From NCBI GenBank assembly GCA_963727835.1, contig CAVSIB010000026.1, positions 13,051 through 77,050 of the forward strand: a stretch of 64,000 nucleotides of DNA. The letters run 5' to 3'. A model generated the notes under the pieces. It was not told where the DNA came from and made no database searches. It was given only the letters and a program-made list of their open reading frames with translations. This DNA comes from an uncultured delta proteobacterium. Lineage in GTDB: Bacteria; Desulfobacterota; WTBG01; JAGOGO01. The translations under genes were made by a program, and so were the position numbers. How positions within the stretch are numbered: position 1 is the stretch's first letter; each line of letters starts with the position of its first letter. Positions 1 to 64,000 of the stretch are shown here, in pieces.

Positions 1-94
1 GATCAAAGATCGTTTAGGAAAGCTTAAGAAAAATAAAGCCGAGTCTAAATTAGATAAAAATATTCAGCTGACAACAGTTTCTCTTTTAAAAAAT

Positions 95-834
95 GTGATA
101 GAAGACCTTAGACAGCAACAGCAAAAATTAACCAATTCAAAAGATCAAGAGCAATATTCTTCCAAGAAAATATTGTTGGGGAGCGCTTTGGCCTTAAAGG
201 TTAACGAGATCTTTTTCGATATCCAGGGAGAGTCTTCGTACGCTGGCTGGCCTTGTGTTTTTATTAGGCTTACGGGTTGCAACTTACGATGCTCGTACTG
301 CGATACGGTGTATGCATATGAGGAAGGCAAAGAGAAGACCATTGCAGAAATCCTGGAAGAAATCAAAAGATTTCCTTGCACACTGATCGAAATTACCGGG
401 GGAGAGCCACTTCTGCAAAGCGATACCCCAATGCTCATCGAAACCCTTTTTGAAAAAAATTACCGCGTTCTTTTGGAAACGAATGGGAGCCTCGCTATTA
501 AGCAGTGAGCAATCAGTGCGTGAAAATAGTAGATTTTAAATGCCCCAGCAGTGGAATGTGCAAATTCAATAATTTAAATAATATAAACTATCTTGCCGAC
601 CAGGATGAAATAAAATTCATTATCGGAAACCGGGAAGATTTTGAATATGCCAAGGGAGTAATAACTCTTTTAAAAGAAAGGCCTTTTTTAAAAAGGCCCA
701 TTCATTTTGCACCGGTTTTTGGAAAACTAAAACCCGGAGAACTTGCCAAGTGGATACTAACAGAACAGGTGCCCGTTCGCCTTCAGCTCCAGATTCAGAA
801 AATAATTTGGCCTAAAAAAAAGAGAGGTGTCTGA
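95..834 (+). pseudogene. queE: 7-carboxy-7-deazaguanine synthase QueE (radical SAM), interrupted by one frameshift near 500-508
   Basis: ORF 95..508 carries EIFFDIQGES, CNLRCSYCDT (CxxxCxxC) and TGGEPLL. The expected continuation (VKIVDFKCPSSG...HFAPVFG) is in ORF 505..834 in another frame. The frame stays open back to the window edge, so the true start is uncertain. Confidence 0.8.
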
Positions 835-835
835 A

Positions 836-1536
836 ATGGGGGGAAAAGCGGTGGTCCTTTTGAGCGGAGGGATGGATTCTGCCACAACCTTGGTGATAGC
901 TAAAAAGGAAGGAGTTTGAAATCTATGCCTTAAGCTTTGACTATGGCCAGCGAAACTCTTTAGAAATTGAAAAGGCTGAAAAGATTGCCGTGTTTTTCGG
1001 AGCAAGGGATCACCTGGTGATCCCTGTTCACCTTAAAAAGATAGGGGGATCGTCTCTTACTTCAGTGGGGATGTCTTTGCCAAGAGGGCAGAGACTTCGG
1101 GGAGATTGGGAAAGAGATTCCTTCCACGTATGTCCCAGCCAGGAATACCATATTTCTTTCATACGCGCTTGCCTGGGCCGAAGTTCTGGGTGCTGGGGAC
1201 ATCTTTATTGGGGTAAATGCAATAGACTGCAGCGGATACCCGGATACAAGGCCAGAATATATCCATGCTTTTGAGCAAATGGCCAACCTGGCCACGAAAG
1301 CCGGGGTAGAGGGAAATTTAAAGTTTAAAATTCGTATCCCGCTTATAAACCTGAGCAAGGCAGAAATTATCAAAAAAGGGATGGAGCTTGGGGTTGATTA
1401 TTCGCTCACCCATAGCTGTTACGATCCCTTTCCCAATGGCATGGCTTGCGGTGAGTGTGATAGTTGCAGACTTCGCTTAAAGGGGTTTGAAGAAGCGGGT
1501 TTTAACGATCCGATTTCCTATAAGGAGATTCGTTAA
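836..1536 (+). pseudogene. queC: 7-cyano-7-deazaguanine synthase QueC, two frameshifts (about 915 and about 1068)
   Basis: ATG 836 gives MGGKAVVLLSGGMDSATT (PP-loop SGGxDS) and then hits TGA. Homology continues in a second frame (EIYALSFDYGQR...GGSSLTS) and then a third ([54 protein letters not shown]). Confidence 0.85.
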
Positions 1537-1550
1537 CATTAAATTTTCCA

Positions 1551-1902
1551 TTGAAGAGGTGTTTCCTGCCCGCTATTAGGTATAGAAATGTAAACCTTGA
1601 TGGACGGGAATACTGGGAATTTGAGACTGGAATAAAGATATTGCTGGGCCGCTATAGCAGAAAGAGAGGGAATGAGTCACGAGTGCCCCCTTACTCAAGA
1701 AAAGATCGATATCCTAAGGGTTATGAGAGAATATTACAAAAAGGACAATTCCCTTCCCCTGCTTAAGGCGGTCTGTAAAAATATTCATCAACCGAAAAAT
1801 TGTGCCTACGAGCAGTTTCTTGACCCGATTAAGGCATGGAAATTGCCGGACTTCCAAAAACCTACTACCGAGGTGTTTGCTCGCATTAGACACAACCCTT
1901 GA
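1551..1902 (+). pseudogene. DsrC/TusE-family-like relic, multiple frame changes near 1600-1670 and no C-terminal Cys pair
   Basis: Pieces VNLDG.., DWNKDIAG and AAIAEREGMSHECPLTQEKIDILRVMREYYKK...DPIKAWKL..KPT lie in three frames. The order matches the DsrC/TusE layout, but the tail ends TEVFARIRHNP instead of the conserved Cys-containing arm. Confidence 0.45.
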
Positions 1903-1976: not shown

Positions 1977-2122
1977 CTAGTGTAGTGAATCTAACACTTC
2001 TTTACATAAATTCCAATGTAACCATTCCCGCGAAAGCGGGAATCTAGCCCAATAACACTGGGATTCCGGGTCAAGCCGGGAACGACAAAGAAAGCAAAGA
2101 AATTTCTGAATCACTACACTAG
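1977..2122. mobile_element. MITE-like non-autonomous element, 146 bp, 15-bp terminal inverted repeats (14/15 match)
   Basis: CTAGTGTAGTGAATC at 1977-1991 versus GAATCACTACACTAG at 2108-2122. There is an internal hairpin ATTCCCGCGAAAGCGGGAAT at 2024-2043 and no ORF of its own. Confidence 0.5.
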
Positions 2123-2501
2123 AACAAGCATCCCTAAGGATTGCTTGGGAAAGAATTTGAATTTCAGGGATACTGAAAAGGTTTTTTAGACAGGCCAAGG
2201 CCCCGCTTTCTAAAAATTCATCACTAAGTCCCTCGGTTGCAAACGCAAGAATAGAAAGAGAAGGATCAATTTTATTTATCCTTCGGGTAAGTTCAAGACC
2301 ATTAATTTTTGGGACCGTATAATCCGTGATGATTAAATCGTAATTTTTTGATTCTATCTTTTGAAGGGCTACCTCACCATTTTCAGCAGTATCTATTTCA
2401 TAACCAAGTGGCCGTAGTGTTTCAGAGATTATAAACTGGATAGATTCTGCTTCATCTACGATCAAGACCAATTTTTTTCTTGCCCGGATATCATTCCCCA
2501 T
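1977..2501 (-). CDS. Single-domain response regulator (CheY-like receiver) whose last ~49 codons and stop lie inside an inserted repeat element
   Basis: KKLVLIVDEAES, DLIITDYTVPKINGLE (phospho-acceptor Asp) and a later LACLKN Lys. GGAGGTG sits 12 nt upstream of ATG 2501 (the ORF track start at 2531 is a TTG). The tail SSVVIQKF...DSLH* is encoded by element 1977-2122. Confidence 0.75.
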   Translation of the reverse strand: MGNDIRARKKLVLIVDEAESIQFIISETLRPLGYEIDTAENGEVALQKIESKNYDLIITDYTVPKINGLELTRRINKIDPSLSILAFATEGLSDEFLESGALACLKNLFSIPEIQILSQAILRDACSSVVIQKFLCFLCRSRLDPESQCYWARFPLSREWLHWNLCKEVLDSLH

Positions 2502-2647
2502 TTTAGGAAAATTCACCTCCCCCAGGGGCAAAGACCCTTTTTCTCTTGAAGGCAGTTAAGAACATACCTTCAAGGAATTTTTGGGCCCCTAAATTTGGTT
2601 AAGGGCCCTCATCCTTGGCGCTTCATTAAAGACGCACAAAAAAATGG

Positions 2648-3144: not shown

Positions 3145-3826
3145 AGGGGTATCATGAAAATAAAAAAATCTCGTCCAATTCAACAAATAATTGAAGACCA
3201 GGTGAATAATTGGAAATCATGCCCTTCCGCACAAGGAAGAAAAGAAAATAACGGTTGTTACTATTTCAAGGCAGGCCGGGAGCGGAGGTCATATTTTAGC
3301 TCAACAGCTTGCTCAGAAATTGAGTTTCGATTTCTTTGACCAGGAGATAACCCAAGCAGTGGCTGAAGACGCCCACATGAGAACTTTAATGGTGGAATCA
3401 TTGGACGAAAAGGGGATTTCTGCTATAGATGACATAATTTCAGCAGTGGTGGAAAAACATCATCTCTGGGGTTACGAATATATGCAGCATCTTTTGAGGG
3501 TGATTGCTACCATAGGAAAACATGGCAACGCAGTGATATTGGGCAGGGGAGGGAATTTTATTCTTCCCCGAGAAGAAATTTTACGGGTAAGGGCGATAGC
3601 CCCACTGGCAGTTCGGGTTAAAAATATTGCCGAGTGGCTTAGGCTTTCTTCTGAACAAGCTAAAGAATACATCCAAAAAATTGAATTGGAGCGGAAAGAT
3701 TTTATTAAGAAATATTTTAAAGCTGACATTAATGATCCAGAAAATAATGATCTGGTGATCAATTTGGAAAAGCTGAGTATAGAGACTGCCATCGAAATAG
3801 TAAAGGCCGCCCTGAAGTCCTCATAA
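3145..3826 (+). pseudogene. Cytidylate-kinase-like (AAA/P-loop) family protein, one frameshift about 3225-3250
   Basis: The N-part MKIKKSRPIQQIIEDQVNNWK is in frame 1. The P-loop piece VVTISRQAGSGGHILAQQLAQKLSFDFFDQEI continues in frame 2 (ORF 3320..3826), and no start codon is available in that frame. Confidence 0.65.
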
Positions 3827-4068: not shown

Positions 4069-4885
4069 ATGAGTTCTTATCCAACTAAAATCGCAGTGCT
4101 CACCCATGTTAATGATAACTTCGTTTCAGGGCCTTATTTATTGAGGTTTTTGGTTGACGCCTGGAAAAATGTTGGGATTGACATCCGAGTGTTGCGCGGC
4201 ATAGAGCATTTTGAACCAGCGGATGCGTTAATCTTGCACACTGATTTGACCATTGTGCCCGATGACTACCTTGCCTTTTGCAAGCAATATCCTTTTGTTA
4301 TCAATGGGGGTGTGGGTGATATCTCCAAGCGGAAGATCAGCTCCAGTCTTGTTGGCCAAAGGGATTCATATTTTGGGCCTGTGATCGTTAAGACCAATTG
4401 TAACTTTGGCGGCAAACCAGAACGAAAAATGGCTCGGCCTTTGTATCGGTTGTTAAGTAGATTGGCAGAATGGCTGCCCTGGAGCTGGACTGGACAGTTG
4501 CGCCCCGATAAGTACCCGATATTTAACTCGTCCCGGGATGTTCCCCGCGCCGTATGGCGCAACCCCCACCTGGTGGTTGAGAGGTTTCTTCCTGAGCGGG
4601 AAAGCGCTTATTATTGTTTGCGCCAGTGGATATTTTTCGGAGACCATGAGATAAACCACCGTGTTTTTTCTAAGAGTCCGATTGTCAAGGCAAGAAATAC
4701 ATATACATCGCGAGGATGGGCTACCTGTTCCAGAAGCACTGCGATCGTTGCGAACAAAGCTCCAGTTCGACTACGGTAAATTCGATTACACTCTCGTTAA
4801 CGGGGAGCCTATCCTTTATGACACCAACCGTACTCCCGCGGTTGCGTGGGCCCACTACTACCGCAAGGCAGGCTTCGATAGTTAA
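4069..4885 (+). pseudogene. Hypothetical ATP-grasp-like protein, one frameshift about 4690-4720
   Basis: ORF 4069..4779 continues in ORF 4661..4885 (…EDGLPVPEALRSLRTKLQFDYGKFDYTLVNGEPILYDTNRTP, resembling the C-terminal ATP-grasp strand/loop). Confidence 0.4.
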
Positions 4886-5048
4886 CGAACTCACCCAAGG
4901 ATTGTTCTCTTTTTTTTTCTAAAAAGGCGGGAAAGCACGGGGTAGCGACGCCGTGATAGTATCACGAGATTTCAAGGAAGCTCGGTGGCGTCCCACCAAC
5001 AGAGATGTAAAGCATGAGCCAGAGTCATCATAAGACTAGGAGTTATGT

Positions 5049-6239
5049 GTGGGAGCTTGGTTGAAACCTACCCAAAGCCTGAGCCAGATCTATGGTTCTG
5101 ATGTGATTTATTCACCACGGGCCTCACCAAACGCGTGCATTTGGTTGCCCCATGATGAGTTTATCTTGGATAGCATGACCGGCGGACAGATTCCCGTTGC
5201 GGGCGATATATCAATTTTCTGTGCGGCAGGCGTTTCAACTCCGGAGGGGCTGCAACTTCTCCGCGATGCAGGATTTGATATTCCGCGGGTGGTGTTTCGT
5301 TACTCCACTGTCACTGATTACCTGCACAAACTAAAAAGCCTGTACAATGAGAGAAGAAAACTAGCCCTCCTCCACGTACATCCAGCTTCTGAACTTCCAC
5401 CGGAAGCCTGTTGGGTTAAGCCGGAAACGTTGTCTTTTCTAAACAACAAGGCGAATCTTGCCGCACTGGTTAGCCCACGCCATGTGCCTACGCGTCGGAT
5501 GTTGATGCCCGGTCGTCTTCTCATTGAGCTCTCGTCTCATTGTTTTCCGCTGGTGGTGAAGGCCGCAACCGACGAATCAAGCGGGGGAGGCGTTGATGTG
5601 GTGATATGCCGGACAGTTCGGGACCTGAAACGGGCCACAGTCTTGTTTCGGTCTTGTACGCGTGTAGTGATTGAGGAATTCCTTCCGATAAAGAGAAATT
5701 TGTGTCTTAACTATGCCGCGACGGCTGAAGGTGTGATTAATTATTTAGGTTGCGCAGAGCAAGTTAGTAGTGCCCAGGGTAAATACCAGGGGAATTGGAT
5801 CGACCCTACGACCATGGCTCCCCCCTTAGCAATAGAGATTGGCACCAGGGTGGTGGCTGCTGGATTTGCGCTAGGATATTATGGTTGTGTGGGTATTGAC
5901 ATGGCAGTACTGGAAAATGATCGGATTATAGTATTTGACCTGAACTTCCGCGTTAATGGGTCTATCGCTGCCTTGTTACTTGCTGAGAGCGTGCAACACA
6001 CCACGGGCCGAACGGTGTTGCGATTTCGAGCTCTGCAGGGAAGCGGGATCTATCGTGATCTTTTCAATAGTGCTTATGCCGCTATACATAAAGGTATCTT
6101 TTTGCCGCTTTCCAGTTACGATCCTGAAGTAGGCGGATATCCAAGAGCGCGTCCACGAATGACTGGCCTGATCCTCGGAAAAACCCGTGAAGAAGTGGAA
6201 GAACATGAACGCGAGCTTTCCACAATGGGCTTATCATGA
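5049..6239 (+). CDS. ATP-grasp domain protein (carboxylate-amine ligase type), substrate unknown
   Basis: LNNKANLAALV, FPLVVKAATDESSGGGVDVVICRT, YYGCVGIDMAVLENDRIIVFDLNFRVNGS. The start is uncertain (GTG 5049 or an internal ATG). Confidence 0.6.
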   Translation: MGAWLKPTQSLSQIYGSDVIYSPRASPNACIWLPHDEFILDSMTGGQIPVAGDISIFCAAGVSTPEGLQLLRDAGFDIPRVVFRYSTVTDYLHKLKSLYNERRKLALLHVHPASELPPEACWVKPETLSFLNNKANLAALVSPRHVPTRRMLMPGRLLIELSSHCFPLVVKAATDESSGGGVDVVICRTVRDLKRATVLFRSCTRVVIEEFLPIKRNLCLNYAATAEGVINYLGCAEQVSSAQGKYQGNWIDPTTMAPPLAIEIGTRVVAAGFALGYYGCVGIDMAVLENDRIIVFDLNFRVNGSIAALLLAESVQHTTGRTVLRFRALQGSGIYRDLFNSAYAAIHKGIFLPLSSYDPEVGGYPRARPRMTGLILGKTREEVEEHERELSTMGLS

Positions 6240-6379
6240 GGCAAAAAGTTTGAAACGGGAACCAATGACGGAAGGCAGTTTTTTATCCGGGTTTATTCTT
6301 TTTAGATTTGTATTGTATCTTGCGAAATGAATAATTTTTGACGAACCATTGCGAGGGTTTGTCTCATTGATGCTGCAGC

Positions 6380-6679
6380 AGTTAACGCAAAAAGATTTTT
6401 GCTTCACTGCCCCCCCCCTGGGATTGGCCTGTATTGCGGCCACGCTTGAACGAGGGGGTTCACGAAGTTTGGGATGTTCTCTTTAGAAAAAATTGACTGC
6501 GGATCGACAAGGCTGACCACATCATGGAGGTAAGGCTCACGTTTTTCGGCCCCGATTTAATTGGGCTGAGCTCGGCCTCAGAGTTGCTTCTGGATGTAGT
6601 GAAATCAGCTCGCATTGCCAAGACGCTTTTTTCTCCGGGTGCTCGCCATGCAGTATCTTTCTTGAAAAAGGCTCGGTAA
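6380..6679 (+). pseudogene. Remnant of the N-terminal B12-binding domain of a radical SAM protein
   Basis: TAPPLGLACIAATLERGG then (frame change) HEVWDVLF, then FGPDLIGLSSASELLLDVVKSARIAKTLFSPGARHAVSFL. It contains a C9 homopolymer at 6410-6418. No radical SAM core follows. Confidence 0.4.
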
Positions 6680-7082
6680 GGCCAACCGCGAACTTTAGTC
6701 CTATGCTAAAGCGGGCAAGAGAATGGGTTTTGAGATTGGAAAGGTAGATAATCTTATCTGCCTCCATGGCGGCTTGAACAAGCGAAACGTTTTTAGGATG
6801 TGCGCCATTTATAGGAACATTTATCCATTCACCCTCATCAAAGTTAATGACTTTGATGTGAAGCTCTTCGGCAAGCTTATAAATTTTCTTTTTCTTTAAT
6901 ACCCGCGCGTTAGGTTGGCAAGCCAATCCACTGCCTGCTCCGAGAGCGATCTCCGTGACGCCGGATTCTTGAAGGAGGGTTACTACTGCCTTAATAAATT
7001 CAGGATCAGAGGAAGCAGGATACCGGTCAGGGCTATTGAAGTTTGCTTTTATGAGTACTTTATCATGAGAAGAAAAAACCCC
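6537..7082 (-). pseudogene. DUF362-family remnant lacking a start codon and the C-terminal part
   Basis: KVLIKANFNSPDRYPASSDPEFIKAVVTLLQESGVTEIALGAGSG...ADKIIYLSNLKTHSLARFSIGLKFAVGL. The open frame has no ATG/GTG/TTG before 6926. The portion below about 6690 is antisense to the rSAM remnant. Confidence 0.5.
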
Positions 7083-7264
7083 TTAAATTCTTCGAGCAAT
7101 ACAACAGCGTTTGATATTGTTGCTCGAAGGTCGCCTTTTCCCGCAACCTTGCTTACCAGTATTTTTGATTTATTGTTGCCAGAAAGCATACAATCATTTT
7201 TTAGAAGTGACAATAGAATAGGAATACCTTATCAAAGTTCAGCAAATTTTTAAAGGAAACTTAC

Positions 7265-7612
7265 TTAGGGTTCAATATTTTTAATAAAGGATTTCATTTC
7301 GTTCATGCTGATCCCCTTGCATTGTATGAGTTTACGGCGAGAGGTCTTCATCTTCAGAATTTTAATGTTGGATTTTCTTATCCGGAGAGCTTGAGATAAA
7401 AGCTCGATCAAGGCCTCGTTAGCCGCGCCTTCTAAAGGCGGTGCAGTTACTTTAACCTTGAGAGCTCCTTCGCTAAGTCCGACAACCCCGTTTTTTTTAG
7501 ACCTTGGCTGGACAATTACCGGAAAGGTGACGCCGCTTTCATGGGTTCGGATTTCAAGGGCGATGGTTTTTGGAGCTTCAAGATTCGCTCGGAGGTTTTT
7601 CTTCTGGTTCAC
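7265..7612 (-). CDS. yggU: DUF167 (YggU) family protein
   Basis: ALKVKVTAPPLEGAANEALIELLSQALRIRKSNIKILKMKTSRRKLIQ. GTG start overlaps the divIVA end. Confidence 0.75.
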   Translation of the reverse strand: MNQKKNLRANLEAPKTIALEIRTHESGVTFPVIVQPRSKKNGVVGLSEGALKVKVTAPPLEGAANEALIELLSQALRIRKSNIKILKMKTSRRKLIQCKGISMNEMKSFIKNIEP

Positions 7613-8099
7613 GGGATTCTTTTTCAGAAGATGATTCGAGGAGTCTTAAGTGGGTTTCCAAGAGAGATCGTAGTTCCTGCTTTAATATTATTTTTTTTCT
7701 TTTTAATTCATTGAGCTCTTCTTGGGTTTTGACTAATCGGCTATTGGTTTCCGCGATCATTTTTTCTGCTTGTTCTCGGGCACGGGCAATAATAAAGGTT
7801 GCTTCTTTCTGGGTATTTGCTTTTAATTCTTCGATAGCTATTTGAGCATTTTTTTTCATTTGCTCGGACGTAGCCTGAGCCATAAGCAAGGTCTCTTTCA
7901 GGGTCTTTTCCATGTTCTGGTATTCCCCGATGCGCGCTTCTTTTCTTTCTAGCTCCTCTCGCAGTTCTTTGTTCGTTTTTAACAGATCTTCCAGTTCACT
8001 GGCTATGGTTTCTAAAAAAGCGTCAACTTCATTGGTGTCGAACCCTCGGAACCGAACGGAGAACTGTTGTTGTTGAATATCAAGAGGTGTTAGTTTCAT
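7578..8099 (-). CDS. divIVA: DivIVA domain cell-division protein
   Basis: MKLTPLDIQQQQFSVRFRGFDTNEVDAFL followed by a long coiled coil. Confidence 0.85.
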   Translation of the reverse strand: MKLTPLDIQQQQFSVRFRGFDTNEVDAFLETIASELEDLLKTNKELREELERKEARIGEYQNMEKTLKETLLMAQATSEQMKKNAQIAIEELKANTQKEATFIIARAREQAEKMIAETNSRLVKTQEELNELKRKKIILKQELRSLLETHLRLLESSSEKESREPEEKPPSES

Positions 8100-8124
8100 C
8101 TTGCTCTACTCCCTTACTGACTGG

Positions 8125-8430
8125 TTAATGGAGTTTATAGGCTAATTCATAAAGGCTTTTCACTAAAAACTTTTGTAAAAAGATAATTCCCAAGAGAAGA
8201 ATGAGCGGAGAAAAGTCTATCCCCGTTCGAGTAAGCGCAAAGGGGAGTCTTCTTCGGATGGGATTTAAAACCGGATCGGTTGAGCGCCGGAGAAAAACCA
8301 CGACCGGATTGTAAGGGTCGGGGTTTACCCAGGAAAGAATGGCTCGGACAACCACTACCCACATATAGATGGTTAATCCGATATCAACCACATTGGCTAA
8401 TGCTTCAAAAAAGTAAGCAAGGAAGACCAT
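8125..8430 (-). CDS. yggT: YggT family membrane protein
   Basis: RAILSWVNPDPYNPVVVFLRRSTDPVLNPIRRRLP motif and two TM segments. Confidence 0.8.
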   Translation of the reverse strand: MVFLAYFFEALANVVDIGLTIYMWVVVVRAILSWVNPDPYNPVVVFLRRSTDPVLNPIRRRLPFALTRTGIDFSPLILLLGIIFLQKFLVKSLYELAYKLH

Positions 8431-8432
8431 GG

Positions 8433-9218
8433 TTAATCAGCTTCTCCTTTTTCTCCCAAATTTTTTTCGTAAATCAACCGAAGGCCCGCAAGAGTAAGGA
8501 GAGGGTCAACCTCCTCAATGGTTTTTGATCCTTCGGCAATTAAAGGAGCTAATCCACCGGTAGCAATGACACGGGGATTGGTTTTTACTTCTTGCTTTAT
8601 TTTTTCTACGATGCCATCAACCATGGCGATATAACCGAACACAATCCCAGACTGGAGGCTGGCAATAGTGTTTTTGCCGATCACGGATTCTGGTCTTATC
8701 AGCTCAATGCGAGGAAGCTTTGAGGCTCTCACAAAAAGAGCTTCGCTCGAAATGACAATTCCCGGCGCAATCGCGCCCCCCATATACTCCCCCCGGGGAG
8801 ACACATAGTCAAAGGTGGTTGCGGTTCCAAAGTCAACTACCACTAAACTCTGTTTGTATTTATCGTAAGCCGCAATAGCATTAACAATCCGATCAGCTCC
8901 GACTTCATGAGGATTGTCATACCTAATGGGCATTCCCGTTTTTACCCCGGGACCAACAAAAAGAGGGGTAATATGAAAGTACTTTTGGCAAAGCCCCTCA
9001 ATAGTGCTCACCATCGGGGGGACAACACTGGAGACAATCACCCCTTTGGTTTTAGCCATATCGATCTTGGCGGCTCGGTATAAATTTTCGATTAGGATTC
9101 CATACTCATCTTCGGTCTTGTCTTTGTGGGTTACGATCCGCCAGTGATTGACCAGCTTTTTATCTTCGAAAACCCCGAAGACGATGTTGGTATTACCAAT
9201 GTCAATGGTAAGGAGCAT
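8433..9218 (-). CDS. coaX: Type III pantothenate kinase
   Basis: [11 protein letters not shown]..., [17 protein letters not shown]. Confidence 0.9.
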
Positions 9219-10057
9219 TATTTCTTTTTCCCCTCCAGTTCCATACTGATATCTATTGCCCGGAAAGCGCTGGTTAAGGCGCCAATGGAAATAACGTCAA
9301 TTCCGGTTTTTGCTACGGATGCAACCCGTTCCAGGGTTATGCCTCCGGAAGCTTCCACGAGAGCGCGGCCTTTGATTTTTTTGACCGCATGTTTCATATC
9401 TTCTAAAGACATATTGTCCAGCATAATAATATCCGCTTTTGCCTTAAGGGCTTCGTCAACTTGTTCGAGGGTATTGACTTCCACTTCAATTTTAAGCGTC
9501 ACAGGGGCTTTGGATCGGGCAAGCGCTATGGCCCGGGTAATAGATCCCACCGCTTGAATATGGTTATCTTTTATGAGCACCCCATCAAAAAGTCCAAACC
9601 GGTGGTTAAATCCACCACCAACTCGCACCGCTTCTTTCTCAAGCACGCGCCATCCGGGCGTGGTTTTTCGGGTATCTAAGATTTTTATCGGATAACCTTT
9701 TACTTTTTTTGCCACCATGCGCGTGAGCGTAGCAATACCCGAAAGCCGCTGAAGAAAATTTAAGGCGGTCCTTTCCCCGCTGAGCAAAACCCAAAGAGGA
9801 CCTTCAATCTCAGCAATGATATCTCCGGCTTTTACTTCTTCTCCATCTTTAAAAAAAGACGTTATGCTGATTTTTCCATCTAAACGAAAAAACACCCGGG
9901 AAAAGACGCTCAATCCTGCCAGCAGAAAATTTTCTTTGGCCAATACCGTGGCATACCCACGGTCTTTTTCCTTGATCAAACTTTTGGTGGTTATATCGTG
10001 TGGACCAAGGTCTTCTCTTAAGGCCAAATCAATGAGGTTTTCAACTGCTTCGATCAT
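9218..10057 (-). CDS. nadC: Nicotinate-nucleotide diphosphorylase (carboxylating)
   Basis: [45 protein letters not shown]. It overlaps coaX by 1 nt and valS by 4 nt. Confidence 0.9.
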
Positions 10058-12732
10058 TGCCCGGCACTTCTCATTTCTTGGAGGCGCGCGATGCTTTCTT
10101 CCAATTTTTTCTTTTTCCCCAATAAGACCTGATGCGTTTCTTTCTCCTTTTCCACTACTTCCTTAGGGGCTTTGCTGAGGAAATCTTCATTGGTCAACTT
10201 TTTCTGGACAAAAGCCATTTCCTTCTCCACTTTGAAAATTTCTTTTTTGAGTCTTTTTTCTTCTTCGCCAAAATCAATTAGCCCCTCTAAAGGAATAAAA
10301 ATTTCTACGCCTTTAACTATTGCAGTGGCAGCAGCATGAGGCTTTTTCCTCGAGGTTGAGAACGTCAGGTTCTTTAACAGTGCTAAGGATATTAAATAAT
10401 TCTGATAAGTTTCTAAAAGCCGTGTTGTCTTAACCTCTTCGCAGAAAAGGATAGCTTCAATTTTTTGTGATGGAGGAATATGCATTTCTCCCCGGATATT
10501 ACGTATATGATACACTACCTCTTTAATAATTTCTAGCGCTTCTTCTGCCGGAAGATTAATCAATAAATCATTTTTCTTGGGAAGGGGAGAGATCATGATG
10601 CTTCCTTTATTCCCTGGGAGTTTCTGCCAGATTTCTTCAGTGATGAAAGGCATAAAAGGATGAAGGAGTTTTAGGATAATGTTAAGAACTTCCAATAGAA
10701 TTTGTTGGGTGGCCTTACGCGAAGAGCTTTTGTCATTGGTGTTTGATAGCTCCTGCTTGCTAAATTCTACATACCAATCACAGAACTCGTGCCAAATAAA
10801 TTGGTAGAGGAAACTGGCGGCCTCATTAAACCGATACTCGTCCAAAGCATCCCTTACGTTTTGAATCAGCTGGTTTACGCGGCTTAAGATCCACTTATCC
10901 GCTAAGGAATAATGAGCCGCTAAATTTTCATCGGAAGAATAGTCAGTAAGGTTTAAAAGCACAAACCGGGCAACATTCCAAATCTTATTGGCAAAATGCC
11001 GGTATCCTTCAATGATGTCCTCATCCAGTCGGATGTCCCTTCCTTGGGCGGCCAAGGCAGCTAAAGTAAACCGGAAGGCATCAGTTCCATATTTTTCAAT
11101 CATCACCAAGGGATCAATGACATTTCCGAGTGATTTACTCATTTTTTGACCTTTAGCATCCCTCACCAAGGCATGGATGTACACATCCCGGAAAGGAACC
11201 TCACCCATAAACTTTATTCCCATCATCATCATTCTCGCAACCCAGAAAAAGAGGATATCAAATCCAGTGACCAGAGCTGAGGTGGGATAAAACGTTTCCA
11301 AATCCTTAGATTTCGTTGGCCAGCCGAGGGTGGAGAAAGGCCAAAGCGCAGAACTAAACCACGTATCTAGCACATCTTCTTCTTGCGTGAGGTCTTTGCT
11401 CCCACAGTTTTTGCATGTCTGAGGTTCGCCTGCGAAAACAGTCACTTCCCCGCAAACCCCGCAATACCAGGCAGGAATTCGATGCCCCCACCAAATTTGC
11501 CGCGAGATGCACCAGTCGCGGATATTTTCCATCCACTCAAAATAGGTTTTTTCCCAAACCGAGGGGATGATCCGAGTCCTGCCTTCTTTGACAGCGTCAA
11601 TTGCAGGTTTGGCCAGAGGGGTGGTTTTAACGAACCACTGTTTAGAAAGAAAAGGCTCAATAATCTCGTTGCACCGGTAGCAGTATCCGATATTGTGGAC
11701 ATAGGTTTCGACTTTTTTCACGAGTTTCTGAGCGGTTAAATCTTCAACGACTTTTTCCCGGCAGGCAAAGCGCTCTAAGCCTTCATAGGGACCAGCATTT
11801 TTATTCATCCGGCCAGACTCATCCATCACCTTGATTATTGGCAGTTTGTGTCGTGAAGACACTTCGAAATCATTAGGGTCATGGGCAGGGGTGATTTTCA
11901 GAGCGCCAGTTCCAAAACTTTTATCAACGTACTCGTCCCCAATAACGGGAATAGCCCGATCCACTAAGGGTAAAAGCACTTCTTTGCCGATCAAATTTCG
12001 ATACCGTTCATCGTCAGGATTGACAGCTACCGCGGTATCGCCCAACATGGTTTCCGGCCGGGTCGTTGCCACAATAAGGGTCTTTTTCCCTTTTTTTAAA
12101 GGGTAATGAATAAAATAGAATTTTCCTTGCGTTTCTTTATATTCGACCTCAAGATCAGAAAGGGCGGTATGACAACGAGGACACCAGTTGATGATATAGT
12201 CTCCTCGGTAAATAAGGCCTTCCTCATACAGGCGAACAAAAACTTCCCGGACTGCCCGACTGAGGCCCTCATCCATGGTAAACCTTTCCCGAACCCAGTC
12301 GCACGATGCGCCTAATCGTTTTAATTGTCCGATAATAATCCCCCCGTGTTCTTTTTTCCATTGCCAGACCCGCTCAATAAACTTTTCCCGCCCCAGGCTT
12401 TTTCGAGTCTTTTTCCCTTTTGCCAGCTCTTTTTCCACCACGTATTGTGTGGCAATGCCAGCATGGTCGGTTCCGGGAAGCCAAAGAGTATTTTCCCCGT
12501 CCATCCGATGGAACCGAACGAGGATATCTTGGAGGGTGTTATTTAAAGCATGTCCCATATGAAGAGACCCCGTGACATTGGGGGGAGGGATCACAATGGA
12601 ATACGGTTTAGAGGAGGATTGTTCGTTGGCGTGGAAAAACCCCTCATTATCCCAGTGGGTATACCACTTTTGCTCGATCGGATGTGGGTCATAGGTTTTT
12701 GGTAGTGAAAAATCATCCATAGCTTTTTTCAA
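10054..12732 (-). CDS. valS: Valine--tRNA ligase
   Basis: 892 aa with PPPNVTGSLHMGHA (HIGH), KMSKSLGN (KMSKS) and a C-terminal coiled coil. Confidence 0.97.
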   Translation of the reverse strand: MKKAMDDFSLPKTYDPHPIEQKWYTHWDNEGFFHANEQSSSKPYSIVIPPPNVTGSLHMGHALNNTLQDILVRFHRMDGENTLWLPGTDHAGIATQYVVEKELAKGKKTRKSLGREKFIERVWQWKKEHGGIIIGQLKRLGASCDWVRERFTMDEGLSRAVREVFVRLYEEGLIYRGDYIINWCPRCHTALSDLEVEYKETQGKFYFIHYPLKKGKKTLIVATTRPETMLGDTAVAVNPDDERYRNLIGKEVLLPLVDRAIPVIGDEYVDKSFGTGALKITPAHDPNDFEVSSRHKLPIIKVMDESGRMNKNAGPYEGLERFACREKVVEDLTAQKLVKKVETYVHNIGYCYRCNEIIEPFLSKQWFVKTTPLAKPAIDAVKEGRTRIIPSVWEKTYFEWMENIRDWCISRQIWWGHRIPAWYCGVCGEVTVFAGEPQTCKNCGSKDLTQEEDVLDTWFSSALWPFSTLGWPTKSKDLETFYPTSALVTGFDILFFWVARMMMMGIKFMGEVPFRDVYIHALVRDAKGQKMSKSLGNVIDPLVMIEKYGTDAFRFTLAALAAQGRDIRLDEDIIEGYRHFANKIWNVARFVLLNLTDYSSDENLAAHYSLADKWILSRVNQLIQNVRDALDEYRFNEAASFLYQFIWHEFCDWYVEFSKQELSNTNDKSSSRKATQQILLEVLNIILKLLHPFMPFITEEIWQKLPGNKGSIMISPLPKKNDLLINLPAEEALEIIKEVVYHIRNIRGEMHIPPSQKIEAILFCEEVKTTRLLETYQNYLISLALLKNLTFSTSRKKPHAAATAIVKGVEIFIPLEGLIDFGEEEKRLKKEIFKVEKEMAFVQKKLTNEDFLSKAPKEVVEKEKETHQVLLGKKKKLEESIARLQEMRSAGQ

Positions 12733-13111: not shown

Positions 13112-13138
13112 TTAGCACTCAAAAAAGGAGAGTGCTAA
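13112..13138 (+). promoter_or_regulatory. CIRCE operator (HrcA binding site)
   Basis: TTAGCACTC-N9-GAGTGCTAA, a perfect match to the consensus, 157 nt upstream of groES. Confidence 0.9.
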
Positions 13139-13189
13139 TTTGTTTTTTAAAAAAATCAAAAAGTTATAAAATTTTTTCTGGGTAAGGAC

Positions 13190-13585: not shown

Positions 13586-13609
13586 ACCTAATGAACTAAT
13601 GAACTATAG

Positions 13610-22067: not shown

Positions 22068-22075
<8 letters not shown>

Positions 22076-55864: not shown

Positions 55865-57172
55865 TTATGATCCCATGTCAAGATGCCCGCTGTTTATCCC
55901 CAGGCACCGCCCCACACCCATCGGGGTAAAGTTCCTCAGCGGCGGGAGGTTATATTTTTTCCAGGTCTCATACCAGGCAATATCAACCTCAATGTAGTAA
56001 TCCAAAGGGATCACAGGCTGATCATACTGACCGAGCACTGAGTTGGGTTCGATAACCCAGCTTGAACTTCGCGGTGTTACCCCATGAGACATCAGGTGTT
56101 CCCAGCACTCTTTCATTGACTTTACCGCGTCCTGCCATTTTTCAAATCCCCAGGGGCGGGCCATTTCACACCCGGAAACAAAAGTGGGACAGACATTGCC
56201 TTCCCCAAAGATTTCCACCGAATCACAAACGCGTTTTACCCACTCATCCCGACCAACAAACTTTTCTTTTCCCGGACAGAAAATTTTAAACTTCTCCTTG
56301 TCCCACACCTCGATATTCGCATGATGAGAGTCAACGCCGGCATCTTTAAGAATTTTGCACTCTTCTTTGGTCAGTGCGGTAGTTTGAAGATGGATCGCCC
56401 ACCGGTAGCCGATTTTTTCCCGAATAGCTTTGATGTACTGGGCGTAGAAGTGGACATTGTCTTTACGCTTAAGGCTTTTGGTAACGGCTCCGCCGGTTAA
56501 CAGAATACTATGATTAATAGATTCCCGTTCTTTATTGAAAATAGTGTCCAGTACGGTTACCACATCCTCAACGCCCTTATGCATCATAAATGGTCGTCCG
56601 GTCTTTGATTGCTTGCGGGCATTGGTGTTAATATCACAGAAAATACATTCTTCTTTTGTTCCCCAGTACTGGCAACTCCTCAAAATCGTACAGAAGGTGA
56701 GATATCCCCAAAACACAGCAGCTGCGATATCCGAGTAGGGAGTTCCATTTGGTAAACGGTGACGGTAGTAAGGGGGTTGGGGTCTCAACTCGAGATCGCC
56801 GATAAAATTGTCTTCCCAGCGAAGCTGTAACTTCCCATCAATTAGATCTATTTTATAGGGAGTTTTTTCCGGCTTCTCGAGACAGGTTTTGTTGTTTGAG
56901 GGTTTGAGGTTGTAAGGTCCTCCTTTGAATTTGAATTCTTCGGGGGCCCGTAAAAACTCCTGCCGCTTCATTTCCTCAACATCGGTTTGATCATAGGAGA
57001 AAAGGTAGTAAGATTTAGTAGTAAACTTAGCTGATTCTTCTAAAGCAGCATCGGTGAAATGAATCCCCAGCCGAAGAATATCCTCCTTGATGATAACCTC
57101 TTTCGGCACATCGGGATATCGTTCGAAATACTTTTCTAAATCATATTTTATATAAGGCATTTTACCGGGCAT
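55865..57172 (-). CDS. Uncharacterised radical-SAM-like protein with non-canonical Cys spacing (Cx5Cx8Cx2C)
   Basis: FCTILRSCQYWGTKEECIFCD is encoded at 56636-56692, followed by SILLTGG. GGAGG lies 9 nt before ATG 57172. I cannot assign a family from memory. Confidence 0.45.
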   Translation of the reverse strand: MPGKMPYIKYDLEKYFERYPDVPKEVIIKEDILRLGIHFTDAALEESAKFTTKSYYLFSYDQTDVEEMKRQEFLRAPEEFKFKGGPYNLKPSNNKTCLEKPEKTPYKIDLIDGKLQLRWEDNFIGDLELRPQPPYYRHRLPNGTPYSDIAAAVFWGYLTFCTILRSCQYWGTKEECIFCDINTNARKQSKTGRPFMMHKGVEDVVTVLDTIFNKERESINHSILLTGGAVTKSLKRKDNVHFYAQYIKAIREKIGYRWAIHLQTTALTKEECKILKDAGVDSHHANIEVWDKEKFKIFCPGKEKFVGRDEWVKRVCDSVEIFGEGNVCPTFVSGCEMARPWGFEKWQDAVKSMKECWEHLMSHGVTPRSSSWVIEPNSVLGQYDQPVIPLDYYIEVDIAWYETWKKYNLPPLRNFTPMGVGRCLGINSGHLDMGS

Positions 57173-57213
57173 GACGACCAACCTCCTTCACTGTTTAAGG
57201 GTGTCTAATTTAG

Positions 57214-57882
57214 TTACGTTCTCTCAAGGTTTTTGAAAATTCTTTCTGGAACCTTAGAACGGTTTTTGTAGATATGAAAAAGGTGTTCAGCGGTCTCTTT
57301 ACCGCCTTCCACTTCTACCACATAAACAAAATCCATCTTTTCATCAAGCATTACTTCGGTCATTGAGACACAATGGGCGCAATAAACCGGACAGTCTTTG
57401 CTTTGACCGGTCATGACCTGTGGTTTTTTTATCCTGAGCAGGTCAAGGGGTGGTCGGTATTTTCCGTCCCGAAGCTGTCTGCCGCCTGAACCACAGGGTT
57501 TGAGAAAGAACGTTACTTTTTCATCATCTTCCTTTAATTCAAACTCGCTGAAATGCGCCCTCCAGATTGCGGCAGTTGCTTCCACGCACGCTTTAAACCC
57601 TTTCTTAAAAAGTTCTCCCAAGGGCATCATATAATTTCTTACTGTTTTAAGCATGATTTCGTGTAACTTTTTATCTCCAAACTGCCTCCCGATTTCCGAA
57701 AGGATGTCGGTGACCCAATCGCGGTAAAGGTCGTGAGCAACCATAAATTCATCATAAATAGACTGCACCAGCTTCTCAGCCCCTTCCTTATCCCCTCTCC
57801 GAATAGCTTCTTTGGCCAAGGTTAATCGGGACATCGCTAAGCCGGCCAATTCCTTATCAGTAAATACTCGTTGAGTTTCCAT
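57214..57882 (-). CDS. Uncharacterised 222-aa Cys-motif protein (CGSGG ... CPVYCAHC)
   Basis: SD AGGGAGG upstream, helical N-half, C130 and C164-x3-C168-x2-C171. It is 33 nt upstream of the radical-SAM-like gene. Confidence 0.5.
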   Translation of the reverse strand: METQRVFTDKELAGLAMSRLTLAKEAIRRGDKEGAEKLVQSIYDEFMVAHDLYRDWVTDILSEIGRQFGDKKLHEIMLKTVRNYMMPLGELFKKGFKACVEATAAIWRAHFSEFELKEDDEKVTFFLKPCGSGGRQLRDGKYRPPLDLLRIKKPQVMTGQSKDCPVYCAHCVSMTEVMLDEKMDFVYVVEVEGGKETAEHLFHIYKNRSKVPERIFKNLERT

Positions 57883-58071
57883 AGCGCCTCCCTATAAATA
57901 CTATACATAAGTTAATAAAAATTGCGGGGAGTTGAACAGCACTGCAAAGGAAACCTTTTATAAGGCTGCCTGGCCGCAATACACTACTTCCTGTGCTTTC
58001 ATTAAAAAAATTAGTAACGTCACTTCAGAAATTGTTTAGTATTATTGCTCTTGCCTCCTTCTTTGAAACCA

Positions 58072-61298: not shown

Positions 61299-61380
61299 AA
61301 ATAATAGTTTGGTTATTGACCAAAGAAAAAACGGAGTCCGTATAGTGACTTCAATTCAATAAATAGCAAGGAGGATTTCT

Positions 61381-63130
61381 ATGAAAAAACTAGACCCCAT
61401 TCTGGTTTCGGTAATTGCCAATCGTTATGACGCGATCTGTCAAGAGATTGGGGAGACCATGTACCGAACCTCTCGGTCTCCGATTTTTAGCGAGGCAAGG
61501 GACTTTGTGACCGCTATCTTTGATCGCCAGGGCCGGATGCTGGCTCAGAAGCCTTATATTGCAGTGCTGGCTGGGGCAACGCCGTATGCGATGAAAAAAA
61601 TTATTGAAATGTTTAAAGATGACCTTCATGATGGCGATGTCATTCTCGATAACGACCCCTACTGGGGCGGAAACAATCATATGCCGGACTTTACTGTTGC
61701 CAAGCCGGTTTTCAGCAACGGCGAGCTGGTATTTTGGACGGTCGCAAAAGGTCACCATGCTGACACTGGCGGCGCCGGCTGTTGCGGGTATCAACCTGAG
61801 GCTCGCACCATCTGGCAGGAAGGCTTGAGGATTCCCCCCATCAAAATTTATGATAAAGGTATCCAACGCAAAGACGTCTGGAACATGATCCTTGCTAACG
61901 TGATGATGCGCTTTCTGGTTGAGGGAGACCTTCATTGTCAGGTCGGCGCCGCCACGGTAGGAGAAAGAAAACTGAAAGAATATTTAGAAAAGTATGGCCG
62001 GGAGACTTTGGAGGCGGCGGCGAATGAAATTTTAGATGGAACGGAAAGACAGATGCGGCAAGAAATCGCGAAAATTCCCGATGGTGATTACGAGGCAGAG
62101 CGTTATAACGACCACGATGGTATCGACCGCGACCGGCTGGTCAAAACCAAACTCACGATACGCGTGCGAGGAGAAAATATCACCTTTGACTTCACCGGGT
62201 CTGATCCCCAGGTTAAGGGTGGCATCAACAATACGGAGGCCAACACCTTTTCCAGCGTTTGTCTGGCCCTGTTCAATACCGTTGACCCGGATATCCGCAA
62301 AAATGAAGGTGCGCTCCGGCCGGTTACACTGATCGCCCCCCAGGGAACGGTCGTGAACTGCCTCGAGCCTGCCCCCTGCACCTCCTGCACCATCTGTGGA
62401 ACAGCGGCGGTGGTGGAAAGCGTTTGGCTGGCCCTTTCCAAGGCCGTACCCCAGCTTATCCAGGCAGCATGGGCGAGATGGTCTGCCCCAGCCACCATGG
62501 GCTTCAATCCCCGAACGGGGAGAATGTTTGGCGACATCCACTTTCTCTGTAAGGGCGGGGCTGGAGCAACGCTAGGATTCGACGGCTGGGATCATATGGG
62601 AGTCATCTCCTGTTCTGGCGGTTTGCGTGCTCCCGATCCGGAGCTGCATGAGTTGGTGGATCCTTACTTTCTGCTTCGCTATGAATACCTGCGAGACAGT
62701 GCTGGCCCGGGAAAATGGCGGGGTGGCATGGGGACAGCGTACATCTTTCGATCAGAAGCTGATAATATCCTGACCGACAATTTTGGTGACGGGCTTTTAC
62801 CGGAAACCGCTCCCTACGGGTTAGCGGGCGGAAAAGGTGCCAAACCGAACAAGCTGGTGGTGCGAAGGACGAGTGGGATCGGTGGAAGACCCCGAGGTCC
62901 ACAAGTATGTGACCCTCAATAAGGGTGATGTTTACGAAGTTTGGGAGACCGGAGGAGGGGGGTATGGAGATCCTTTTGAACGATCAGTGGAAAAGGTTCA
63001 GGAGGATGTTATCGATGAACTAGTGTCCATAGAATCAGCAAAGAATGATTATGGTGTGGTGATTGATTCCAAAACCTTAGCCGTTGATACGGAAAAAACG
63101 ACAAAGCTCCGTAAGGCCCACAAAAAATGA
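61381..63130 (+). pseudogene. hyuB: Hydantoinase B/oxoprolinase family (HyuB-like) subunit, one frameshift about 62870-62885
   Basis: ORF 61381..62922 (DPILVSVIANRYDAICQEIGETMYRTSRSPIFSEARDF...). The conserved end GSVEDPEVHKYVTLNKGDVYEVWETGGGGYGDPFER...NDYGVV is in ORF 62837..63130 in another frame. Confidence 0.88.
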
Positions 63131-63569
63131 GATAAAGGCGTTGTTGCTTTAATAAGCTTCATGCTTTGAGCCTCTCGCTTCTGAGGCTGTCCGGCAACCT
63201 CGGTTTAGGAATGATGTGCTATCTCTCAAGGCCCTCTCACAAGACTTCCCGAAAGAGGATTTTCGGACAGCCTCTACCCTCTCTTTTATTGTACGAATCA
63301 AGTATGCGTTATTGAAGACAGCAGACGCCACCATGGGTCGCATGAATATAGCTATGTTCCCCAATGCGAAAACAAAAAGCTTTCACCCTGTTGCGACCTG
63401 TCCCACCGCGTAAAGGCGGGGGCCCTAGTGACACCGATAGAAATTTTCCTTTACCCTCTTTGTGTATAATTATATAGTGTGACCATGAAAGTGTTTTTGC
63501 GAAAAGCAATCTTCTTGCGCCTCCGGCGACAGGCGTAAAAAAATACTCACGGCTTATGACGAGGGCTTT

Positions 63570-64000
63570 ATGGTTCCACTGCTCACGATAGTGCAGAAAA
63601 ACAAAGAGAAACTTATCCGGCGCTGTGTTTGCGAGTACCATGGAGAGAAGCCAAAGGGTAAACGAAAAATAGAGGCTTCCTTTGCTATCGCGATTGAGCT
63701 TTTTATAGAGGGGATCAAACATAAAAACGTCACCTGCTTGGGCTCATTTCTCGAAAGGATAGTTGATGGAGAAAACCAGAAGGAGATGCATCCATCGCAG
63801 GGGGCCAGACTTCTTAACATAACGAGAAAGGTTCTGCTCCAGTTGGTTCTGAAAAAACATGAAAAAAAGGGTATGACTAAGGCAATTGATTGCATAGATC
63901 GGACTTTCGCTATCGCCACGAAAGTCATGATGCATCGCTTTGAAAATATTGCCTCGCGGGAGCGCGAGGAGATCAAAAAAAGAGAGCGCCGCATCGGAGA
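63570..64000 (+). CDS. Partial CDS running off the window (not in the ORF track); possibly an RsbRD-N-like sensory N-domain
   Basis: The frame is open from 63489 to the window end: MVPLLTIVQKNKEKLIRR...HPSQGARLLNITRKVLLQLV...IDRTFAIATKVMMHRFENIASREREEIKKRERRIG. TATAAT at 63465-63470. An upstream ATG at 63485 is out of frame across an A7 run. Confidence 0.4.
   Translation, partial: MVPLLTIVQKNKEKLIRRCVCEYHGEKPKGKRKIEASFAIAIELFIEGIKHKNVTCLGSFLERIVDGENQKEMHPSQGARLLNITRKVLLQLVLKKHEKKGMTKAIDCIDRTFAIATKVMMHRFENIASREREEIKKRERRIG

Follow-up and report, generated by a model that had tools for sequence, protein, structure and literature searches.

The window analysed here, a 64,000-nucleotide (nt) stretch of contig CAVSIB010000026.1 (assembly GCA_963727835.1) from an uncultured delta proteobacterium, contains a series of genes with broken reading frames, which raises the question of whether these breaks record the decay of a genome or errors in its assembly. 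The first-pass annotation counted about 20 disruptions, found them concentrated in dispensable genes and read them as ongoing decay, with consensus error in strain-variable DNA as the alternative. Comparison with related genomes leads us to judge that two things are superimposed in the window, a few old and genuine remnants and 18 artefactual frameshifts in nine otherwise perfect genes. The 18 events are confined to this contig and affect queE, queC, a CMK-like gene, the gene of a 290-amino-acid (290-aa) hypothetical protein, mfd, an alpha/beta hydrolase gene, a GT4 glycosyltransferase gene, an asmA-like gene and hyuB. Judged from the sequences, they are probably consensus artefacts produced by the collapse of co-occurring strains. 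Consensus error thus accounts better for most of the disruptions, while the old remnants remain genuine, and decay holds for these remnants only. The private frameshifts do not fit it because of the intact relatives, the low ratio of non-synonymous to synonymous substitution rates (dN/dS of 0.16), the bias toward insertions and the union of strain alleles at the insertion sites.

The window has a G+C content of 44% and contains no tRNA genes. Its DNA is found in public peat, permafrost and sediment metagenomes at ~98 to 99% identity but never exactly, with a top 31-mer share of 0.63. The nearest genomes are those of uncultured Thermodesulfobacteriota, among them the benzene fermenter ORM2a, to which the organism of the window is related (for ORM2, see PMC13101534 and PMC10190668). 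The gene map is built from Pfam scans and the pre-computed annotation of related contigs. The set of ~98% sister strains comprises L001, L002 and L030 to L032, L011, and L033 to L037, taken from ENA assemblies of the MEGAHIT type (k141), JGI assemblies and Logan contigs of SRR6960558, with L032 and L037 both representing run X1. Relatives at the species level are L016 to L018, L025 and L012 to L014. L016 is the metagenome-assembled genome (MAG) MFD00709.bin.2.91, a Flye-assembled GTDB representative with ~94 to 96% nucleotide identity to the window; L017 is SMAG_U8427 (~94%), and L018 is the closed 3.3-Mb genome CP113000.1 of the benzene-fermenting ORM2a (~89%). Contigs of further short-read runs (X1, X2, X3, X4, X45, X47, X48 and X60) were also aligned to the window. 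The best match to mfd (96%) is L015. This long-read contig of a ~94% relative is noisy and therefore of limited value as a reference.

The frame breaks listed by the first-pass annotation are present in the sequence and stand out against intact orthologues in relatives, although the details need correction at several loci. The orthologue comparison that it proposed shows the nine genes to be intact in every relative examined, namely, three sister-strain assemblies, L011, L016 to L018 and seven short-read runs, and the older remnants to be shared with sister strains. In the left part of the window, queE, queC, the dsrC-like gene, the CMK-like gene and the 290-aa gene are all intact in three independent ~98% sister-strain assemblies. 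When the extra letters are removed or the missing one is restored, full-length, stop-free open reading frames (ORFs) result in all nine genes.

The gene queE (positions 2 to 834, plus strand) shows a private -1 event at 502, where the tblastn match changes from frame 2 to frame 1. In the sister strains L030, L031 and L032, a further T follows 501, and the gene is intact at 215 aa. Two private +1 events, a G at 914 and an A at 1090, distribute queC (836 to 1536, plus strand) over three tblastn frames. Run X1 and L030 contain neither letter and encode an intact protein of 232 aa, the length of the flawless corrected ORF of the window. In the CMK-like gene (Cytidylate_kin2; 3154 to 3826, plus strand), a private +1 event lies at 3220, where the window has TCATGCC in place of the TCATCC of sister strains and the TCAGCC of other relatives; the corrected ORF is flawless at 223 aa. 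Another CMK-like protein, P0128 from a 116,794-nt ENA contig, contains an internal stretch that matches the out-of-frame translation of the CMK-like gene of the window, which indicates that a further long contig, from a relative, probably carries two frameshifts that compensate each other. The gene of the 290-aa hypothetical protein (4069 to 4946, plus strand) carries +1 events at 4701 and 4848 and a +2 event at 4910 relative to L001 and L002, and its corrected ORF is full length. The adjacent ATP-grasp gene, which had been listed as broken, is intact (5049 to 6239); the disrupted gene is this 290-aa neighbor.

For mfd (24936 to 28480, minus strand), three indels had been reported, but four private +1 events are present, at 26683, 26734, 28262 and 28403, and the Pfam domains are split across two ORFs, with the junction passing through three frames. 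The gene is intact in L016, L017 and L018 with 1,182 to 1,183 aa, and the corrected ORF of the window is stop-free with 1,170 aa. Runs X1, X2, X4, X45, X48 and X60 lack both the 26683 and the 26734 insertions; X47 lacks the former, and its contig stops before the latter. The insertion at 28262 is absent from X1, the only run that reaches it, while 28403 lies outside the short-read coverage. A search of indexed public runs for the window version of 26640 to 26790 found none, the best run containing 3 of 11 sampled words. The alpha/beta hydrolase gene (28451 to 29215, minus strand) has a private +1 event (G) at 29126 near the N terminus, and its corrected product of 253 aa is collinear with those of L015 and L016. 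The GT4 glycosyltransferase gene (30924 to 32043, minus strand) combines three private +1 events (31043, 31573 and 31611) with a -1 event at 31822. The corrected ORF is flawless at 344 aa, and L011 has an intact gene of the same length.

The AsmA/YhdP/DUF748-like gene (34740 to 37573, minus strand) is shifted at 35108 and has a corrected ORF of 942 aa. At this site, the window reads ATC-TCTC and L012 and L013 read ATCGTCTC, while the sister strain L011, in which the gene is intact, shows an in-frame 3-nt deletion. A reading of the region from 35 to 38.8 kb as mfd was rejected; the Pfam matches there are those of the asmA/YhdP-like gene, a PAS gene and an rmuC remnant, and mfd lies at 24.9 to 28.5 kb. 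The last of the nine genes, hyuB (61381 to 63130, plus strand), contains a private +1 event (GG to GGG) at ~62876 that is absent from X1, X2 and X3. The gene matches Pfam profile positions 1 to 481 of 519. Its corrected ORF is flawless at 583 aa, and homologues have ~585 aa. Within hyuB, at ~62247 to 62443, contigs L033, L034 and L037 (the last being X1), which stem from several independent assemblies, all stop at 62247 to 62312, and the next X1 contig begins at 62444. These contig ends suggest a repeat or a hypervariable stretch inside the gene.

Insertions predominate among the private events (15, compared to 3 deletions), and all but 1 of the 18 are located outside homopolymers longer than 3. 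The usual bias of bacterial mutation spectra is toward deletions and toward slippage in runs. On the outgroup-polarised terminal branch of the window, six affected genes show 22 synonymous and 12 non-synonymous substitutions, a dN/dS of ~0.16 compared to ~0.27 in controls. On a longer branch, mfd shows a dN/dS of 0.16, compared to 0.11 for gyrA and gyrB. There is no sign of relaxed selection on the affected genes. In GT4 and the 290-aa gene, indels equal substitutions in number, with 4 of each in the former and 3 of each in the latter. At most 7 substitutions, where at least 17 are expected, have a probability of 0.005; this expectation takes the extra hits as neutral in dead genes and applies the top intergenic indel-to-substitution ratio of the lineage (~0.3). 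The argument is weakened because strains often differ naturally by indels in intergenic DNA (at 12733 to 13294, 2 real indels for 7 single-nucleotide polymorphisms [SNPs]; at 48.5 to 62.3 kb, 13 events), and it is kept for the multi-hit genes only.

By an automated criterion, 9 of the 13 single-base insertions tested equal the base that relatives hold in the adjacent polymorphic column. With 20,000 simulated insertions per locus in the same alignments, the null rate is 0.07 to 0.16 (P = 2e-6). When the X45 haplotype is included, the count rises to 10 of 13. Across the counts and null rates considered, P lies between 1e-7 and 2e-5. At 26683 in mfd, relatives have either C (L016 to L018, X45 and X47) or T (X1, X2, X4, X48 and X60), and the window has CT; its context is GTTCTTTGG, and the versions without the extra letter would read GTTCTTGG and GTTTTTGG. 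At 28262, relatives read AG or GA and the window AGA. The two GT4 sites are alike, with A or G in relatives and AG in the window (CACAGTG) at 31043 and with G or A in relatives and GA in the window at 31573. At 3220 in the CMK-like gene, T or G in relatives corresponds to TG in the window. The asmA-like site at 35108 retains two of the three letters of the indel that separates L011 from L012 and L013. We know of no natural mutational process that writes the allele of a neighboring strain beside the resident one, whereas the consensus of two collapsed haplotypes can do so, which argues for an artefact.

A mechanism of this kind can be outlined. The contig would stem from an unphased long-read metagenome assembly, probably of the Nanopore/Flye type, and the source sample would have contained two co-occurring strains with divergent alleles, their reads being merged into a single contig; both types of allele are known from other samples. 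The consensus would then, at some of the polymorphic sites, write both alleles in series (C/T becoming CT, A/G becoming AG), giving a +1 frameshift, and elsewhere it would keep part of a 3-nt indel. Loci at which the strains are nearly identical would stay free of error, among them the core genes and ~20 kb of accessory genes, and the same-strain contigs bear out a clean consensus where they overlap the window. Conserved genes are less polymorphic, and the outcome would mimic a sparing of essential genes. No description of a signature with both alleles in tandem was found in the papers searched, and the mechanism is one that we infer.

Residual indels and truncated proteins are documented for Nanopore-only MAGs by IDEEL-type analyses (Sereika et al. 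2022, PMC9262707) and for mmlong2 MAGs (PMC12313526). Like these, the window has frameshifts that are private to one assembly in genes that are otherwise intact, and the nearest reference MAG has frameshifts of its own. That MAG, L016, the nearest GTDB genome, is a Nanopore-only assembly (contig_44841) made with Flye and one Medaka round without short-read polishing (PMC12313526). Its gyrB (15745 to 18205) and SurA-like gene (11889 to 12870) are each split into two ORFs, so that frameshifts occur in essential genes there. The name of contig L015 is of the Flye style, and its frameshift density is similar. Unlike those of Nanopore-only MAGs in general, the errors of the window are mainly non-homopolymer insertions at few loci and at strain-polymorphic sites, with a near-perfect remainder. 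In this respect, they resemble collapsed-haplotype errors, with two alleles from related strains fused at one place and affected blocks that are 3 to 6% diverged. The collapse of strain mixtures in metagenome assembly, an effect of microdiversity, is addressed by separation tools such as Strainberry (PMC8302730).

The distribution of the events along the window is far from even. If they were uniform, the probability of finding none in the 19.3 kb of core genes would be 2.6e-4, and, if they were uniform over the non-core part, the probability of finding none in its 20.4 kb of intact genes would be 3.7e-8. The number of genes hit by the 18 events is 9 of 47, compared to 14.2 expected (P = 0.0012). 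Lesions are concentrated in blocks at 0.5 to 4.9, 26.7 to 29.1, 31.0 to 31.8, 34 to 35.1, 38.3 to 39.6 and 62.9 kb, with two clean stretches of ~20 kb between them. Of the contrast between dispensable genes that are hit and core genes that are spared, the second half stands. The first does not, because the events also leave ~20.4 kb of non-core genes untouched and the lesions cluster by locus. The pattern is therefore one of a few loci hit repeatedly against everything else, not of dispensable against essential genes. Uniform error had been dismissed on the grounds that it should not spare the essential half of the window; uniformity is indeed rejected, but the error need not be uniform.

Three of the blocks (queE to the 290-aa gene, mfd and GT4) show 3 to 6% divergence from the sister strain, compared to 1.1 to 1.6% elsewhere. 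This divergence is symmetric and mostly synonymous, which points to deeper allelic divergence rather than decay. In GT4, the excess belongs to the L011 branch and is concentrated in a patch in which the window, L016 and L018 agree and this sister strain differs. At ~8430 to 8650 of L011 (~31380 to 31620 of the window), 36 GT4 codon positions differ where the other three agree, mostly within ~200 nt. The patch suggests that L011 may have imported this allele, although 27 of the 36 changes are non-synonymous.

Several observations weigh against the collapse of strains as the source of the private frameshifts. The assembly is not generally noisy, as the window is near-perfect over 8.7 kb of same-strain overlap, and genuine pseudogenes exist in the same window. 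Several hits per gene and none in essential genes are also what real decay predicts. YdjC (2.8% SNPs) and ATP-grasp (1.4%) lack any indel, while the asmA and rmuC blocks are affected at only 1.1 to 1.6% divergence from the sister strain. An artefact rate proportional to the SNP density of the sister strain was rejected, since it predicts ~10 to 16 core-gene indels where none is seen; the artefact model consequently needs locus-specific mixing of haplotypes in the source sample. The union test was devised after the pattern had been seen and leans partly on the noisy reference L015, and a union partner is missing for three or four insertions (914, 1090, 4848 and perhaps 29126).

The overlap that shows the accuracy of the contig comes from run ERR11594402, which contains the same strain. 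Its Logan contigs L010, L029 and L041 cover 6989 to 13827 and 56187 to 58003, both in regions without disrupted genes, with a total of 3 mismatches and 1 indel (L029, 2 mismatches and no gaps; L010, no mismatches and 1 gap; L041, 1 mismatch and no gaps). The sole indel is a homopolymer difference, T8 versus T7, at 12974. No same-strain short-read contig spanning a lesion was found, and a Logan source was found for none of 10 window proteins in or near the affected blocks. The window proteins, frameshift fragments included, are recorded on a single 77,824-nt contig (NCBI and ENA). Exact look-ups of the GyrA, RpmE, ParB and Rho proteins of the window and of a 236-aa frameshifted ORF gave no match, and six frame-corrected proteins (CMK, the 290-aa protein, QueC, QueE, the hydrolase and GT4) are absent from a collection of 15 billion proteins.

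The strongest competitor to the collapse of strains is very recent and genuine pseudogenisation, in which, under relaxed selection or a bottleneck, nine dispensable genes were broken after the split from the ~98% sister strain while selection purged lesions from needed genes. It accounts for the lack of frameshifts in 19.3 kb of core genes (P = 2.6e-4) and for multiple hits per gene, and it agrees with the accuracy of the contig at every same-strain overlap, with the real remnants of rmuC, B12-rSAM, DUF362 and ClC in the lineage, with a substitution-type nonsense codon in the dsrC-like region and with the disruption of both queE and queC, two steps of one pathway. It is nevertheless unlikely. 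The six genes tested carry 34 substitutions on the terminal branch against 12 frameshift events, at a dN/dS of 0.16; indels equal substitutions in GT4 and the 290-aa gene; and the 15 insertions against 3 deletions lie outside homopolymers. The inserted bases are neighboring strain alleles in 9 to 10 of 13 cases, the corrected ORFs are all flawless, and none of the lesions is found in the other datasets examined. Moreover, it would be extraordinary for a free-living organism with a genome of ~3.3 Mb to have had ~25% of genes broken so recently, with all of them intact in relatives that are ~1 to 4% diverged over the affected blocks.

Mass pseudogenisation during reductive evolution is exemplified by Mycobacterium leprae and by recently host-restricted symbionts. 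As in reduction of the M. leprae type, many broken genes stand beside intact core genes in the window, and real old remnants occur in the lineage. The likeness ends with the absence of a non-synonymous excess and of a deletion bias and with the lesions of the nine genes, which are not shared with relatives. The organism of the window also differs from host-restricted symbionts in being a free-living peat and permafrost bacterium with a closed relative of 3.3 Mb. That the frameshifts are real and mark a free-living, peat-dwelling relative of the ORM2 clade at the onset of genome reduction, with ~1/4 of the window genes inactivated, is quite unlikely. In that case, mfd and the queuosine pathway would have been lost within ~1 to 4% divergence from relatives that keep them intact, and mutation would be biased toward +1 insertions at strain-polymorphic sites, for example, through errors in resolving recombination heteroduplexes.

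Uniform sequencing or consensus error in a low-coverage long-read assembly, clustered by chance, is very improbable. The T8 versus T7 discrepancy at 12974 against the same-strain contig would fit it, as would the frameshifts in gyrB, surA, truA and ydjC of the related long-read MAG L016 and contig L015. Against it stand the confinement of 18 events to 9 of 47 genes (P = 0.0012), their absence from 39.7 kb of other coding sequence (P of ~1e-11), the single indel in 8.7 kb of same-strain overlap and the missing association with homopolymers. Functional recoding, whether by programmed frameshifting, phase variation or naturally split genes, has a negligible chance of being correct, since the shift sites show no slippery or simple-repeat contexts, single genes contain up to four shifts, the shifts are conserved in none of the relatives examined, and the one feature in its favor, a conserved 17-nt overlap at 37557 to 37573, is resolved as an ordinary gene boundary. 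A reading of this overlap as a conserved frameshift was rejected; the end of the PAS gene overlaps the beginning of the asmA-like gene there in a different frame, an arrangement kept in relatives down to 83% protein identity.

The collapse of strains as the preferred explanation has consequences for annotation. At face value, the MAG would be annotated without mfd, queuosine synthesis, a glycosyltransferase, an AsmA-like envelope protein and hydantoinase B, and it would be quoted as an example of genome decay in progress, while the evidence points mostly to artefact. Collapsed-strain consensus errors can thereby mimic a sparing of essential genes. Private +1 insertions that equal the allele of a neighboring strain, in ORFs that show no other flaw and evolve under purifying selection, point to such errors and provide a quality-control signature that needs no reads.

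The genuine lesions form a separate class. The B12-rSAM, DUF362 and rmuC remnants, the 5'-truncated ClC gene and the N-terminal loss of the PAS gene are real, old and ordinary decay, because they are common to ~98% sister strains assembled independently from short reads. The B12-rSAM remnant (6354 to 6673) retains residues 2 to 116 of 492 in three frames, and L001 shows the same ranges and the same split, with one stop. The DUF362 remnant (6540 to 7082) covers Pfam profile positions 1 to 141 of 200. Across 6240 to 7264, which spans the DUF362 remnant, no indel separates the window from L001. The PAS-domain gene (37557 to 38291, minus strand) has lost the first PAS domain in both the window and the sister strain L011. 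It encodes 372 aa with two PAS domains in L013 and L014, of which L011 and the window keep residues 158 to 372 only.

Loss of mfd and rmuC had been offered as part of the story of decay. Loss of mfd is doubtful; rmuC has indeed been lost, but the loss is an old one that the sister strain L011 has in common with the window. The rmuC remnant (38296 to 38850, minus strand) lacks the N-terminal 216 aa and carries one frameshift, and L011 already shows both lesions. Further indels, at 38401, 38554 and 38789, and a deletion of ~291 nt at ~38300 are found in the window in addition. The ClC remnant (39557 to 40399, plus strand) is 5' truncated and consists of the last third of the channel domain (Pfam positions 235 to 345 of 346) and the CBS domains. 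Residues 203 to 484 of the 485-aa relative P0457 remain, a 280-aa form occurs in a cluster of 13 sequences, and a 1-nt deletion at 39562 distinguishes the window from L011.

The dsrC-like remnant (1540 to 1900, plus strand) has a scrambled 5' end with 7 extra letters between 1581 and 1621, an AAA-to-TAA change in codon 5, a -1 event at 1837 and a -2 event at 1855. Sister strains have a 94-aa ORF here, with a weak Pfam match to DsrC. The substitution-type damage, a nonsense codon, supports grouping this region with genuine decay. Next to it, at 1977 to 2118, lies an element of 142 nt resembling a miniature inverted-repeat transposable element (MITE). Its terminal inverted repeats begin with TGTAGTGA and read TGTAGTGAATC at one end and GAATCACTACA at the other, with CTAG at both flanks. 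The element is absent from all sister-strain assemblies, and X1 skips the 142 nt.

A reciprocal loss is seen in the adjacent gene of a CheY-like receiver (2119 to 2531, minus strand), an intact ORF in the window and a pseudogene in L030 (8987 to 9401). The L030 copy of this response regulator has 3 stops, 1 frameshift and ~25% amino acid divergence, and the locus diverges far more than its flanks do. Such a mixed lesion spectrum is the appearance of real decay in this lineage. Together with rmuC, B12-rSAM, DUF362 and ClC, the reciprocal loss represents ordinary strain-level turnover of gene content.

The left part of the window contains, in order, queE, queC, the dsrC-like remnant, the MITE-like insertion, the response-regulator receiver gene, the CMK-like gene, the gene of the 290-aa hypothetical protein and ATP-grasp (LdmS_N), followed by the B12-rSAM and DUF362 remnants, a PF1765-like gene, divIVA, yggT, coaX, nadC, valS, groES, groEL and ssb. 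Next are gyrA, gyrB, parB, parA, rsmG, the gene of a SurA-like peptidyl-prolyl isomerase, mfd, the alpha/beta hydrolase and metallophosphoesterase genes and truA, and then GT4, ydjC, a second glycosyltransferase gene, the asmA/YhdP-like gene, the PAS gene, the rmuC remnant, marR, the ClC remnant and a glycerate-kinase-like gene. The right part is made up of prmC, prfA, rpmE, rho, acd, a CCG/Fer4 oxidoreductase gene, a hypothetical gene, a fadB-like gene, etfA, etfB and a thiolase gene, with an rSAM-like gene, a B12-binding gene, tetR, hyuA and hyuB at the end.

The genes for which the first-pass annotation reported no disruption (valS, coaX, nadC, groESL, ssb, gyrA, gyrB, parAB, rsmG, prfA, rpmE, rho and the acd-to-thiolase operon) are indeed free of frameshifts compared to relatives. 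The first clean stretch, of 19.8 kb, extends from ATP-grasp to the SurA-like isomerase (5049 to 24828) without a private coding frameshift, and its indels relative to L001, L016 and L018 are intergenic only. The second, of 20.9 kb, extends from the glycerate-kinase-like gene to hyuA (40441 to 61298) and has no frameshift. From 41845 on, indels relative to L033 to L037 and L014 are intergenic or in frame; the glycerate-kinase-like gene itself (40441 to 41769) has no reference locus and is rated intact by its ORF and Pfam match. That indels between the window and the sister strain in the core genes and the operon region are intergenic or in frame is as expected for what is presumably natural variation under selection. 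The ~20.4 kb of intact non-core genes include ATP-grasp, PAS, MarR, the glycerate-kinase-like gene, metallophosphoesterase, YdjC, the second glycosyltransferase, the rSAM and B12-binding genes, TetR, hyuA and others.

Two further entries of the disruption list were not borne out. The GnT-like fragment has no Pfam match, and its disruption was not confirmed. The possible break in the last ORF was likewise not confirmed; the two differences seen there, of 1 nt each at 63466 and 63471, fall in an AT-rich stretch upstream of a plus-strand ORF.

Smaller differences in structure separate the window from its relatives. In the gap between groES and groEL, the 8-nt motif CTAATGAA at 13588 to 13595 is tandemly duplicated, unlike in the sister strains L001 to L003. 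Judged by the same-strain contig L010, this is a real strain difference, since L010 matches the window. A break in synteny or assembly lies at ~15818 to 16090: contigs L001 and L002 continue for 0.7 to 1.15 kb into unrelated sequence past 15821, and X1 contigs stop at 15818 to 15821, while the window continues into gyrA. The block of marR, the ClC remnant and the glycerate-kinase-like gene (38.9 to 41.8 kb) is missing in L014 (7226 to 7413), where rmuC adjoins prmC.

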